Below are positions 23,149 through 38,909 of a stretch of 47,303 nucleotides of DNA, piece by piece. Position numbers and translations under genes: made by a program. The stretch is from an uncultured Bacilli bacterium. Its GTDB lineage: Bacteria; Bacillota_I; Bacilli_A; RF39; UBA660. Below the pieces are notes generated by a model. That model had not been told where the DNA came from and ran no database searches. It saw only the letters and a list, made by a program, of their open reading frames with translations. How positions within the stretch are numbered: the first letter of the stretch is position 1; every line of letters starts with the position of its first letter. The DNA lies in the NCBI GenBank assembly GCA_944363675.1, contig CALVUT010000035.1, forward strand, positions 1 through 47,303, read 5' to 3'.

Positions 23149-23802
23149 ATGTCATTAGTTTATGAACCTACTGCAGCTAAAAATTGGGCAAATGCAGTAG
23201 TAGAATGTTTGAATGGAGGCCCTGCTAGTGTTAAAGGTTGTTCAATGAAGTTTAATGAACAAATTGAAAAGTTAGTTCAACCTAATGTTTGGACCGGTGC
23301 TGCAGCTGCACAAAACTTTCAAAATTTTATGGATACTCACAACGCATTAATTCATTTTGCAAATGAATTTGGATCATCTTTTTCACAAGCTATGATGGAT
23401 GTTGCTAAAAGTATAGCTGATTTAGAGGTGGCTAATTTAGGAGCAGATACAACTGTTTCTTCAAATTTTGGACAATTAAATTATTCCCAAATTACGGAAA
23501 TGAGTGCTGCTAATATAAATAAGGAAGTTGTTACTTACGATTATGGTGTTATTAGCGAGATTGGTTCTGCTTTAGCTTCTATTAAAGGCAATTTGGAAGA
23601 TGTTAAGACCAAATTGGATTCAGAACTTTCTAAACTTAATAGTGGTTCAGGCATTTGGGATGGTAATGCTGCAGAAGGCGCTAAAGAGACTTTGACTAAT
23701 GTTTTAAATACAAATATGAGTCAAATCTTTGAAGCTTTAAATACGTGTATAAGTAATATTTCTGCTGCTGCTGAAGCCGCACAAATGGCAGATCAAGGTT
23801 AG
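23149..23802 (+). CDS. Fused tandem WXG100-like protein (two WXG modules in one chain)
   Basis: 217 aa, all-helical composition. First motif VWTGAAAAQNF, second IWDGNAAEGAKE, about 110 residues apart. Strong RBS GAGAGGAG. Its own terminator follows. Confidence 0.75.
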   Translation: MSLVYEPTAAKNWANAVVECLNGGPASVKGCSMKFNEQIEKLVQPNVWTGAAAAQNFQNFMDTHNALIHFANEFGSSFSQAMMDVAKSIADLEVANLGADTTVSSNFGQLNYSQITEMSAANINKEVVTYDYGVISEIGSALASIKGNLEDVKTKLDSELSKLNSGSGIWDGNAAEGAKETLTNVLNTNMSQIFEALNTCISNISAAAEAAQMADQG

Positions 23803-23812
23803 TTGTATGATT

Positions 23813-23837
23813 AAGTAGCTTTTTAGCTACTTTTTTC
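23813..23837 (+). terminator. Rho-independent terminator after the double-WXG gene
   Basis: AAGTAGCT / AGCTACTT 8-bp stem, TTTT loop, T-run. Confidence 0.8.
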
Positions 23838-23891
23838 TTTGTCTAAAATTAAAGTCGTGATATAATTGTTTTAGAATAAGGAAGTGGGTAA

Positions 23892-26800
23892 ATGAAAATT
23901 GTTATATTTTTTGATGATTCGAAAACTTTTCAAATTTACAATCTTCCGAAGATTATTGACGGTAATTACTGGGTGACTTATCAAGATGAAGATGGAAATA
24001 AGAAAAATTTTTTAAATGTTTATGCGTATAATAATCAATGGGTTTATGAGGATGATTATAAGCAAATTGTAATTCTTCCTTTTCGATACTATAAGGTAAA
24101 AGAAACCTTTTTTTATACTATACCTTTGTATGATGAATCTTTAAAGTTGTATTCTGTGCAAGGATTGGATACGTTATCTTTTGGAAAAAGTAAAGGAGAT
24201 ATTCAAGCTGATTGTTTTGGTGAAGCGACAATTACTTTAAATAAGAAAGGTAATCGCTGGTTGATTCAGTGTGATAAGGCAAATTTTCGAATGTATATTA
24301 ATCAAAAAATTGTTACTGGTAAACTTTTAGAACCAACAGATAGTATTTTTTTAAATGGGATGACTTTATATGTTTTAGCAGAGTATTTAATTTTTAATAA
24401 TCCTCAGAATATTGTTCATATTGAAAATAGTAAAATCGTTTTGAAAGAAATTCCTTCTATAGAAGAGACGACAGAAACTTTAGATGATAAAAGTATTTAC
24501 GAGAAAAAAGATTATTTTTATCGTTCGCCAAGATTTCGAAATGTTATTGAGGAGGTACAAATTAAAATTGATTCGCCACCCGCATCGCCAGTAAAAGAAG
24601 AAATGCCTCTTTTACTTCAAATGGGCGGCATGCTTACTATGGGTATGAGTTCGATGGTTACACTTTTTGTTTCAGTTAGTGGTCTTGCTAGTGGTGAAAG
24701 AGATTTTATGAGCGTATTACCTTCTTTAGTTATTGGGGTAAGTATGCTTGTAGGTATGCTTTTAATTCCGACTTTGTCTAGACGTTATCAAAAGAAAAAA
24801 TCGCTTGAACAAGAGAAACTTAGACAAGAAAAGTATTTGGAATACTTAGCTGCCAAGAAAAAAGAAATTCATCAAGTTATAGAGGATCAACAAACTAGAT
24901 TGAATGATAATAGTGTTTCTTTGGAAACTTGTGAGGATATCATTCTTCATCGTCGAAGAAATTTATGGGAAAGAAAAATAGAACATGATGATTTTTTATC
25001 TGTTCATATCGGTATTGGGGAAATACCAGCTAAGATAAAAATAAGTTTTCCAGAAGAGCATTTTTCTTTAGAAGATGATAGTTTAAAAAATGAATTGTTT
25101 AAAATGGCTGATGAACCTCGTAACTTAAAGAATGTACCTATTAATGTTTCTTTTGTTGAAAAAAATATTTGTGCTATTTTAGGTAATATTCAATTAATTC
25201 CATCTTTTTTAAATTCTATTTTATTGCAATTTATTACTTTTCATAGTTATGAAGATGTAAAATTTGTTCTTTTGACTTCTGAAGCTACGTCTTCAAAATG
25301 GGAGGACATGAAAGAAATTCCTTATTTATGGAATAATGATCGAACTATGCGTTATTATGGGGAAACAAAAGAAGATAAGTTTGCTATTTTGAATACTTTA
25401 TTTGAGGTGTATAAAAATAGACGCTATGCAGATGAAGATTATTCTAAAGAATCTGGAAATGATTATAGATCTTTTTTGCCTTATTATGCTATTATTACAG
25501 ATGATTTTGAATCTATTCGAGACTCTGATTTTGTTCGAGCTGTCATGAAGAATAAAACGAATTTTGGGTTTAGCTTTTTGATTATAACACATCGATTAAT
25601 GGGGCTTCCTAATGAATGCAATTCGTTTATTAACGTAGATGCAAATCAATCTGGAATGATAGAAAATGAATTATCTTCAGATAAACAGTTGGTATTTCAA
25701 GCAGAATTTTTAAACAAACCATTGACAGATTGTTACCGAATGATCAGTAATATTCCTATTCCTTTGGCTTCGGCGAAAGGACGTTTGCCTGATACTATTA
25801 GTTTTTTAGAAATGTATAATGTTGGTAGGGTTGAGCAGCTTAATGCACTTAATCGTTGGAATACGAATCATCCTTATGATACTTTGGAAGCGCCTGTTGG
25901 TGTAGACAGTAATGGTAGTTTGTTTATGCTTGATTTACATGAAAAAGCTCATGGTCCGCATGGATTGGTTGCTGGTATGACTGGTTCTGGTAAAAGTGAA
26001 TTTATTATCACTTATATTTTGTCTATGGCAGTTAATTATCATCCGGATATGGTTTCGTTTGTTTTAATCGATTATAAAGGTGGAGGTTTAGCAGGAGCGT
26101 TTTATAATCCTGATACTGGAGTTCGGCTTCCTCATTTAGCAGGAACAATTACAAATTTGGATACCGTCGAAATTAAGCGTAGTTTAGCTTCTATTGAAAG
26201 TGAACTTAAACGTCGTCAAAGGTTGTTTAATGAGGCACGTCAACAAACAAATGAAAGTACAATGAATATTTATAAATATCAAAAGTTATATCAGGAGGGT
26301 GTTGTTAAAGAACCTATTCCACATTTGTTTATTATTAGTGATGAGTTTGCTGAACTTAAGAGTCAGCAGCCAGAGTTTATGGCTCAATTAATTTCTACTG
26401 CGCGTATTGGACGTTCTTTAGGCGTGCATCTTATTTTGGCTACACAGAAACCTAGTGGTGTTGTTGATGCACAGATTTGGAGTAATTCAAAGTTTCGTGT
26501 TTGTTTAAAGGTTCAAGATCGCAGTGATTCTATGGATATGATAAAGGTTCCGGATGCTGCAGCATTGACTGATGTAGGAAGATTTTACTTGCAAGTCGGG
26601 TATAATGAATTTTTTGCTTTAGGGCAATCAGCGTGGTGCGGAGCTCCGTATTATGAAATGGACGAACGCAAGTCTAAAGTTAATTCGTCTTTAGATTATA
26701 TTAACAATGTTGGTAAAGTTTTAAAATCTATTGAACAAGAAGATGTTTCTAAGAAATTACAGTATAAAGGTGAGGAATTGCCTGCTATATTGAAATATCT

Positions 26801-37913: not shown

Positions 37914-37963
37914 ATGTTTTTGTAAATTTATGATATTCTTAAGTTAGTGAAAGTGAGGTTTTT

Positions 37964-38590
37964 ATGGAGTATCGCTTTTATCCGTTAAGTTTTGATATGC
38001 AGTTAGTTCAAGAGAAATTTGCTAATGAATCTGACTTTTTAAAATGTATGGCTTTGTATAAACAAGGTTTCGAACGTTTTTTGAGTCGCTTTATTCCTTT
38101 TGAACAGATTGATTCTTTTATTGAAAAGCAAGGGGTTTTTATTCCTAAAGTGGATGATTTAGAAAGTAATTTTTATCATAAGTTTTCTACTTTAGGCAGT
38201 GATTATATTTATTTAAGAAATAATTTTCATGTTGAAAATTTGGATATTGACGACATTATGGATTTGTTTACTCGTGAAAGCATACCCGTTTCTTTTTATG
38301 AGAGAACTTTTCAGAAGGTTGTTTTTGAAAAAGGGGATGTTAGTTTTTTTGGAATTCCTTGTGATGAAACAAGGGCTTTGTCACAAAGTTTGGTGTTTGA
38401 GTTTGCCTTTAAGCAAATGGAGTGTCAAACGTTGGAACAATTAAATTCTATTCGTAAAGTTCGTGATCAAGTTTTTCAGTTGTTAGAGGACGCTAATCAA
38501 AAGGAATTGAAGATAGCCACTTCGTATCTTACTTATAATATGATTCCAAATATATTTAAGGAAGAAGAAAAAGAAAGGAATAGAGGGTGA
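37964..38590 (+). CDS. Hypothetical cytoplasmic protein, candidate immunity protein for the upstream toxin
   Basis: 208 aa, no hydrophobic helix, no motif I recognise. RBS GTGAGG. The position directly 3' of the toxin C-terminal domain is the only evidence. Confidence 0.4.
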   Translation: MEYRFYPLSFDMQLVQEKFANESDFLKCMALYKQGFERFLSRFIPFEQIDSFIEKQGVFIPKVDDLESNFYHKFSTLGSDYIYLRNNFHVENLDIDDIMDLFTRESIPVSFYERTFQKVVFEKGDVSFFGIPCDETRALSQSLVFEFAFKQMECQTLEQLNSIRKVRDQVFQLLEDANQKELKIATSYLTYNMIPNIFKEEEKERNRG

Positions 38591-38594
38591 AAAG

Positions 38595-38909
38595 ATGCAA
38601 GAAAAGTATTTACCTATAGGCACGGTTGTTTTATTAAAAGGAGGAAGTAAACGAGTGATGATTACTGGTTTTTGTTCGGTTGATGGCAATGAAAGTGATG
38701 TTATTTATGATTATAATGGTTGTGTTTATCCGGAAGGCTATTTGAGTAGTGATCAGACTTGTTTATTTAATCATGATCAAATTGATAAAATTTATTATAT
38801 GGGTTTTGTTGATGATGAGGAAAAGGAATTTAAGGCAAAATTAAAGGAGCTTGTGGCAAATTTGAATAATGCTTCTAAGGAAAAAGTGGAAAATTTAACG
38901 GACAATTAG
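38595..38909 (+). CDS. DUF4176-like T7SS-associated protein
   Basis: 104 aa. YLPIGTVVLLKGGSKRVMITGF...YDYNGCVYPEG...FNHDQIDKIYYMGF matches my recollection of the DUF4176 pattern seen in Firmicute T7SS accessory regions. Confidence 0.6.
   Translation: MQEKYLPIGTVVLLKGGSKRVMITGFCSVDGNESDVIYDYNGCVYPEGYLSSDQTCLFNHDQIDKIYYMGFVDDEEKEFKAKLKELVANLNNASKEKVENLTDN

Follow-up and report, generated by a model that had tools for sequence, protein, structure and literature searches.

A reduced type VII secretion locus carrying EssC and a ubiquitin-like protein in uncultured Bacilli, a candidate minimal variant

A stretch of 47,303 nucleotides of contig CALVUT010000035.1 (assembly GCA_944363675.1, uncultured Bacilli bacterium), hereafter the window, carries a block of type VII secretion system (T7SS) genes in which the membrane ATPase EssC and a small ubiquitin-like protein, p83, are the recognisable machinery. 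We consider it probable that this block is a functional, reduced and clade-specific T7SS locus of uncultured, small-genome gut and rumen Bacilli and, with about the same confidence, that the system does not use EssA, EssB and EsaA, the canonical partners of EssC in the type VIIb system (T7SSb). A more far-reaching proposal, in which EssC and one ubiquitin-like protein constitute the whole membrane machine, with neither an EssB-like scaffold nor an envelope-spanning partner and with a single catalytic ATPase site, is put forward tentatively, as a serious possibility that falls short of being probable. The locus is conserved across its clade, evolves under purifying selection and ends in an exchangeable toxin and immunity gene set, as described below. 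Its nine open reading frames (ORFs), all on the plus strand, occupy positions 23149-38909 of the window between tatD and a yabE-like gene, where a first-pass annotation of the DNA had placed them.

EssC, the ubiquitin-like protein and the absent membrane components

EssC scored 1016.7 bits against the model TIGR03928 (cut-off 778.4) and matched YukB, as resolved by cryo-electron microscopy (chain 9qks), with an E-value of 1.1e-123, the alignment beginning at residue 111. The protein consists of a divergent FHA region, two transmembrane (TM) helices (residues 247-297), a DUF domain and the ATPase-like domains D1, D2 and D3, of which the last two are degenerate. Residues 1-236 gave no Pfam FHA match, and the FHA assignment was made by homology of this region (24-29% identity) to relatives that do match the Pfam model (PF00498); the phosphothreonine-binding residues of FHA domains are not retained in its subclade. 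The first-pass annotation had counted one intact P-loop, and the motifs bear out that count: D1 has both an intact Walker A (GMTGSGKS) and an intact Walker B (DE), D2 reads GSAGSGKE, with Glu after the GK and with NN at Walker B where the Geobacillus EssC has DN (Asp-to-Asn), and D3 has no P-loop (ITGLELEKM versus VGQSRKGKT in Geobacillus EssC). What does not hold is an interpretation of these changes as damage. The GK of D2 is followed by Glu or Asp in all 120 of the nearest EssC homologues, and a comparison with the 93%-identical relative at locus L005 gave ratios of non-synonymous to synonymous substitution (dN/dS) of 0.019 for D1, 0.031 for D2, 0.115 for D3 and 0.096 for the FHA region. 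The degenerate P-loops of D2 and D3 are conserved family features under strong constraint. Over whole genes, the same comparison yielded 0.054 for essC, 0.038 for the p83 gene and 0.079 for the p217 gene as against 0.070 for metS and 0.082 for tatD, and the small genes of the block, at 0.04-0.18, are likewise in line with their housekeeping neighbours.

The gene following essC overlaps its end by 8 bp, and we regard the two as translationally coupled. Its product, p83, gave a weak Pfam YukD match (E 0.0036), as did eight of 11 members of its family. Since a search of PDB sequences with a profile of the p83 family returned no match, YukD included, the identity of the protein was settled by its predicted fold. 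An AlphaFold2 (AF2) model built from 42 homologues has a confidence score (pLDDT) of 94.5 and adopts a beta-grasp fold, and its best Foldseek matches were the EccD ubiquitin-like domains of ESX-5 and ESX-1 (7npt, 7b9s and 4kv2; TM-scores 0.73-0.80). We therefore assign p83 as an EsaB/YukD-type component, which agrees with the initial view that EssC and an EsaB-type protein are the recognisable machinery here. The p83 family has 1608 members, none of which is annotated, and a gene of this type adjoins essC in ten of ten related loci.

No protein of the island matched the Pfam or NCBIfam models for EssB/YukC, EssA or EsaA at E<=0.1, confirming an absence that had been noted at the outset. By hydropathy, TM-grade segments are confined to EssC, which has its two helices, and to p183, which is encoded in the flank; a small TM ORF resembling EssA/YueC does not occur in the island, and as the gaps between genes are too short (at most 96 bp), no small gene is hidden in them. 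The small ORFs were also considered as divergent forms of EssA or EssB and none qualifies, given that they have no TM helix and no match to the EssA or EssB profiles and that p208 is of the immunity type. The first-pass annotation had allowed for hydrophobic helices in EssC and possibly in the giant effector; this stands for EssC, whereas the hydropathy peak of the giant protein, 1.33, reflects a moderately hydrophobic Ala/Gly-rich stretch without a TM-grade helix. EssA, EssB and EsaA are likewise missing from approximately 67 kb around the locus, and the further 10 kb on either side of the window hold housekeeping genes and a retroelement and no T7SS genes.

Related loci show the same composition. 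We found at least 628 EssC homologues at E<=1e-50, nearly all of them metagenomic, and read ten related loci in which the ubiquitin-like protein is 27-94% and EssC 30-93% identical to the proteins described here. When their ORFs were clustered, EssC and the ubiquitin-like gene proved to be the only pair common to all ten. None of the ten loci has a Pfam match to YukC, EssA or EsaA within 10 kb, and no membrane protein recurs beside essC in any two of the ten lineages. It had been left open whether the missing parts are encoded elsewhere or the architecture is reduced; ten loci that share EssC and a ubiquitin-like protein alone, together with purifying selection, favour a reduced architecture common to the clade.

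Several proteins were tried as concealed components and rejected. The immunity-type protein p208, the one product of unrecognised family with roughly the size of a pseudokinase domain, was rejected as a soluble EssB pseudokinase, having no family match and no kinase match for its moderate-confidence model and co-varying with the toxin C-terminus. The giant protein is not an envelope component similar to EsaA or TsdI, as it has neither a signal peptide nor a TM helix, is a mosaic, and has a C-terminus that is swapped between strains. At locus L021 (192-1328), an unannotated 378-aa protein next to parB looked EssB-shaped by virtue of a central hydrophobic stretch. It has no YukC match and a kinase-type loop (LDRHPNNWG) directly follows that stretch, so we regard the protein as soluble and kinase-like; a weak Fam20C-kinase match was also obtained. 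The L010 cluster has two TM proteins at its edge, and these lack counterparts in the other loci.

A shorter EssC-like gene, 1281-1292 aa in length and 30-32% identical, was encountered in two metagenome-assembled genomes labelled Tenericutes and Erysipelotrichaceae (L007 8316-14117 and L008 2453-8217). It matches only residues 1 to ~1268 of the query and is apparently without D3. In both cases the EssC-like and ubiquitin-like genes stand directly after a gene for a DUF6020 membrane protein; their surroundings consist of cell-envelope and housekeeping genes and include no WXG100 gene.

WXG100 proteins and the toxin module

Table 1. Genes of the T7SS block (positions in the window)
Feature	Position	Strand	Basis of assignment
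p217, stand-alone tandem-WXG100 protein	23149..23802	+	Pfam/NCBIfam WXG100
EssC, membrane FtsK/SpoIIIE-type T7SS ATPase	23892..28439	+	TIGR03928
p83, YukD/EsaB-type ubiquitin-like protein	28432..28683	+	weak YukD match, AF2 fold
p100, WXG100 protein (EsxA-like or partner), C-terminal YxxxE motif	28760..29062	+	Pfam WXG100
p96, second WXG100-like protein, C-terminal YxxxE motif	29066..29356	+	TIGR03930, Pfam borderline
p133, small coiled-coil protein	29358..29759	+	weak coiled-coil-type Pfam matches
Giant mosaic polymorphic toxin, 2713 aa	29772..37913	+	module sharing among related loci
p208, candidate immunity protein	37964..38590	+	co-variation with toxin C-terminus
DUF4176 protein	38595..38909	+	PF13780, 94.9 bits

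The first gene of the block encodes p217, which matches the Pfam WXG100 model with 28.7 bits over residues 130-216 and TIGR03930 in two stretches. Its two halves align in register at their WxG motifs, and the protein is a candidate mimic of an EsxA dimer; phmmer found no match to it in the PDB, and a marginal Pfam LXG match was obtained (E 0.098). The gene forms a transcription unit of its own, with a terminator-like hairpin at 23813-23832 and a promoter-like site before essC. Its family falls into 64 clusters at 50% identity, mostly of stand-alone proteins of 207-230 aa, and a homologue lies upstream of essC in L005 and L009. At L016 (4051-7567), three p217-type paralogues precede essC. Two of them are extended at the C-terminus (345 and 506 aa), which shows that a tandem-WXG domain can also act as the N-terminal carrier of longer proteins.

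Two further WXG100 proteins follow p83. The score of p100 against Pfam WXG100 (PF06013) is 33.2 bits, above the cut-off of 27.3, its C-terminus reads NAYQKLED, and L005, L009 and L016 each have a homologue in the corresponding place. For p96 the score is 27.2 bits, just below that cut-off, with a TIGR03930 E-value of 8e-8; it contains NYKKLEE and has homologues in L005 and L009. The two proteins likely form a heterodimer. Next in order, p133 has no TM helix and shows weak coiled-coil-type Pfam matches alone; L009 has a homologue in the corresponding place, while L012 and L016 have comparable genes of 125-137 aa. Its position upstream of the toxin makes p133 a candidate Lap-type targeting partner of the giant protein.

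The giant protein, whose true start is likely the ATG at 29775, begins with a helical N-terminus and continues as a mosaic of modules that are shared separately with the effectors of L005, L009, L012 and L017. Residues 561-860 form a conserved Ala/Gly-rich module common to the L012 and L009 effectors, residues 1063-1287 recur in the L009 effector, residues 1451-1780, which include a transglutaminase-like core (~1502-1599), are replaced in the 93% relative, and residues 2078-2713 constitute a C-terminal toxin domain in common with L017. Apart from a weak Transglut_core match (E 0.033) the protein has no family match, and phmmer against PDB sequences returned nothing. In the C-terminal module Cys2502, Cys2503 and His2663 are invariant, in the context GGCCW...GSHAML, which suggests that the domain may be papain-like.

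The gene after the toxin encodes p208, which has five homologues, no TM helix and no family match, and whose AF2 model (pLDDT 70) resembles no solved fold, kinases included. One homologue, P0125, is encoded at L017 immediately behind the gene for a protein of 1224 aa, and the final 640 aa of that protein are 30% identical to residues 2078-2700 of the giant protein. L019 and L020 (1-3163), which encode an identical rpsI protein, were compared with L018 and with positions 35400-38590 of the window. There, a 2449-aa toxin has an unrelated C-terminus and a 223-aa gene replaces that of p208, while the DUF4176 gene stays 87.5% identical across the exchange. Strains of a single species thus differ by the exchange of a toxin/immunity cassette. 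Because p208 has few homologues, gave no kinase match by predicted fold and co-varies with the toxin C-terminus, we assign it as an immunity-type gene and not as machinery.

A DUF4176 homologue also closes the effector module in L009, L012 and L016 and is present in the L017 cluster; experiments have demonstrated that members of the DUF4176 family stabilise LXG toxins (PMC12482557). The giant gene of this block thus has the make-up of a toxin module, namely a variable C-terminus with an immunity gene, helical partners upstream and DUF4176 downstream. Wherever an effector module is present in the related loci it follows one pattern, consisting of a WXG pair, a helical protein, a large toxin, an immunity gene and DUF4176, and in two relatives an ADP-ribosyltransferase-type toxin is paired with an ADP-ribosylglycohydrolase gene. 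In L012, the 48%-identical locus, the module also includes a soluble Ser/Thr kinase of 269 aa (21549-22358; Pkinase 87.7 bits) with intact HGDLKPAN and DFE motifs, located between the ADP-ribosylglycohydrolase immunity gene and DUF4176. This kinase is not conserved in the other loci and has no similarity to p208.

Relation to known type VII systems and competing explanations

A survey of RefSeq genomes defined the variants T7SSc to T7SSj, all of which are without EssA, EssB and EsaA (Garrett, Higginson & Palmer 2024, PMC11217815). According to that survey, these three proteins are specific to T7SSb, the common core of type VII systems is composed of the ATPase, the ubiquitin-like protein (absent only in T7SSd) and WXG100 proteins (with no clear one in T7SSi), and each of the variants c to j has accessory proteins of its own. 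The absence of EssA, EssB and EsaA is thus a known theme, and neither the 'type VIIb' label that the first-pass annotation gave to the island nor its treatment of the absence as an anomaly can be upheld.

The locus shares much with T7SSb, as represented by the Ess system of Staphylococcus aureus and the Yuk/Yue system of Bacillus subtilis. Its ATPase is of the EssC/YukB type, in which an FHA-type N-terminal region and a pair of TM helices are combined with a DUF domain and three ATPase-like domains; its ubiquitin-like protein is of the YukD/EsaB kind; its putative substrates include WXG100 proteins; and its toxin module is built in LXG style, small helical partners and an immunity gene being accompanied by the DUF4176 chaperone. 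The locus differs from T7SSb in that EssB/YukC, EssA/YueC and EsaA/YueB are missing here and from the ten related loci, that D2 has GK followed by Glu or Asp at Walker A, D3 is without its P-loop and the FHA region has diverged beyond recognition by Pfam, and that its first gene encodes a fused tandem-WXG protein where T7SSb has the 100-aa EsxA. With T7SSc-j, especially the simple T7SSg (A1, A2, B, C and L) and the b-like T7SSf, it shares the TsxA/TsxB/TsxC core without EssA, EssB or EsaA; some of these variants likewise have a non-identical pair of WXG100 proteins, or candidate toxins with small WXG-like partners and immunity genes. Pfam searches of the island and window found none of the accessory domains of these variants, that is, no kinase (TsxD), PPM phosphatase (TsxF), DUF6382-FHA protein (TsxJ), small TM protein (TsxH/K), large Ig-like envelope protein (TsxI), DUF5050 propeller (TsgL), TadZ-AAA+ protein (TsfV) or EspG-like protein (TsxG), and there are no adjacent Tad pilus genes. 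Since these accessories are absent and the clade, known only from metagenome assemblies, lies outside the RefSeq survey, we propose the locus as a candidate for a further T7SS variant, set apart from c to j by its accessory gene content and the most reduced so far; if EssC and the ubiquitin-like protein were the whole membrane machine, it would be an eleventh, minimal subtype. Our literature searches yielded no publication in which a T7SS is connected with these lineages.

The toxin module invites comparison with LXG modules (TelA-C with Lap1/Lap2; EsaD with EsxB, EsxC and EsxD; DUF4176), in which small WXG-like or helical genes likewise precede a toxin with a helical N-terminus, the toxin C-terminus and the immunity gene can be swapped, and DUF4176 follows. 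The giant protein is, however, about five times the size of a typical LXG toxin and a multi-module mosaic with transglutaminase-like, putatively papain-like and Ala/Gly-rich central modules.

In a 2025 structure of YukB, YukC and YukD, the EssC homologue is central, forming the channel in the model, EssB is a peripheral scaffold, and YukD clamps the FHA and DUF regions of YukB (PMC12637312). By analogy, the membrane channel would consist of oligomeric EssC, each subunit contributing two TM helices, with p83 clamping its FHA and DUF regions. D1 would be the only hydrolysing ATPase, and D2 and D3 would act as non-catalytic structural, docking or regulatory domains. The WXG100 proteins p100 and p96, with their YxxxE signals, and p217 could be co-secreted substrates or activators, and the toxin may be recruited through its helical N-terminus together with small partners (p133, possibly p100 and p96), DUF4176 stabilising it and p208 neutralising it in the producing cell. 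EssA, EssB and EsaA would have no part in such a system, as in T7SSc-j.

The same gene content could also arise if this were an ordinary T7SSb with a split gene set, in which essB, essA and esaA form another operon elsewhere in the genome. EssC does pass a T7SSb-type model and align to YukB, its relatives retain an FHA domain that Pfam recognises and that in T7SSb serves to bind EssB, and T7SS genes are scattered in the clade, as L013 and L014 illustrate; TIGR03928, however, probably fails to distinguish T7SSb from variants f and j, which are b-like. Characterised T7SSb systems cluster these genes with essC (PMC12637312), whereas none of the ten diverged loci has them within 10 kb, the ubiquitin-like gene is adjacent every time, and the ~67 kb around the present locus are free of them. 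We consider such a split improbable. A decaying T7SSb remnant, in which membrane partners, two ATPase sites and secretion itself have been lost, would account for the missing EssA, EssB and EsaA, the degenerate Walker A and B motifs of D2 and the lost P-loop of D3. All ORFs are intact, however, and since the dN/dS values (0.02-0.12 for the EssC domains) equal those of housekeeping neighbours and the degenerate motifs are conserved, decay is very unlikely. The exchange of cassettes between strains of one species furthermore implies ongoing selection on secretion-dependent antagonism.

A different explanation accepts that the locus is reduced and supposes that the machine is not, a non-homologous membrane partner comparable to EssB, TsxD, TsxH or TsxK being encoded elsewhere. 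In most published variants one or more membrane proteins peculiar to the subtype and unrelated to EssB are indeed present (PMC11217815), purifying selection acts on the FHA region, and the L010 cluster has its two TM proteins at the edge. Obligate complex partners are, however, normally linked, as the ubiquitin-like gene is here, and the failure of any membrane protein to recur beside essC in two lineages argues against this explanation, which we hold to be rather unlikely, though not to the same degree as a split T7SSb.

Several observations nevertheless weigh against a reduced, self-sufficient system. A further membrane component accompanies EssC/EccC in every experimentally studied T7SS and in nine of the ten described arrangements; for the tenth, T7SSg, the passages of the survey that bear on it do not state the location of TsgL (PMC11217815). 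The constraint on the FHA region fits binding of the ubiquitin-like protein and equally that of an unknown partner. L013 and L014 have essC and the ubiquitin-like gene without WXG or toxin genes nearby, so that a partner could be unlinked as well; T7SS genes are dispersed in this clade, and absence at the locus is therefore not absence from the genome. Finally, the giant protein has no Pfam LXG (PF04740) match, and its helical N-terminus is weakly shared with the L009 effector. On balance, we retain the interpretation of the block as a functional, reduced and clade-specific T7SS locus.

To our knowledge, the components strictly needed for T7SS channel formation are not known in the field. If EssC and the ubiquitin-like protein suffice, a natural system made of A, B and C components only, under strong selection in many lineages and able to export a toxin of 2713 aa, would show what the minimal machine is and, being simple, would lend itself to reconstitution and structural studies. 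Should the partners be encoded elsewhere in the genome, the finding would shrink to an unusual split gene arrangement. The locus also brings to light a YukD-like family, unannotated and numbering approximately 1600 proteins, and a second family, that of the giant mosaic T7SS toxins, in uncultured Bacilli of the gut.

Genomic surroundings

The window covers the origin-proximal part of a low-GC (~31%) chromosome. The genes before the block are, in order, dnaA, dnaN, comK, recF, gyrB, gyrA, tadA, dnaX, ybaB, recR, holB, pth, mfd, spoVT, metS and tatD (PF01026, 261 bits), the last being its upstream neighbour; after it come p183, ksgA, yabG, spoVG, yabP, yabQ, divIC, truA, rplM and rpsI. The product of p183 is a 183-aa N-anchored membrane protein without a family hit, and the gene is taken to be the 3D-domain/yabE-like gene of the first-pass annotation. 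Membership of p183 in the island was considered and rejected: the gene occupies the position of yabE in B. subtilis, and its place in L009, after tatD and outside the island, assigns it to the flank.

The impression that the island is native in composition and without mobility genes was borne out. Its GC content is 0.308, compared with 0.306 and 0.315 in the flanks, with GC at third codon positions alike, no k-mers of at least 10 nt are shared between its two borders, and the window contains no integrase or transposase. Insertion between tatD and the yabE-like gene holds for this genome and is not general. In the 63%-identical locus L009 (7570-24563), the block separates metS from tatD and so lies on the opposite side of the latter gene; in other relatives it sits among unrelated housekeeping genes. 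L009 also has an insertion sequence (IS) element with a DDE transposase between the tandem-WXG gene and essC, and encodes a 1980-aa toxin with an ADP-ribosylglycohydrolase. Identical or near-identical copies of the present locus are confined to metagenome assemblies, the closest genomes being labelled 'uncultured Bacilli bacterium' (EssC identity 93% and 82%).

Other features were noted along the window. A comK gene (PF06338, 131.8 bits; 3169-3636) is located between dnaN and recF in the origin region. The gap between gyrA and the signal recognition particle (SRP) RNA gene (9187-10484), which is non-coding and has a GC content of ~20%, contains seven perfect copies of TGTTTCACGTGAAACA, spaced 163-274 bp apart within longer direct repeats of 136-144 nt; the sequence occurs nowhere else in the window, where 0.02 copies would be expected by chance. 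We take TGTTTCACGTGAAACA to be the Firmicute parS consensus, and the array looks like a centromere-like parS array beside oriC. The small SRP RNA itself (Rfam, 54.5 bits; 10485-10583) extends into the 5' end of the tadA ORF as called mechanically, so the true start of tadA is probably later. Upstream of metS lies a T-box leader (Rfam, 113.7 bits; 20503-20687). Near the end of the window, a 140-aa minus-strand ORF (46553-46975) is probably spurious. The window breaks off inside a gene for a 550-aa N-anchored protein (46073-47303), beyond which the full contig (L018 10661-14259) continues with bAvd and a reverse transcriptase (RVT_1), an arrangement that has the layout expected of a diversity-generating retroelement.

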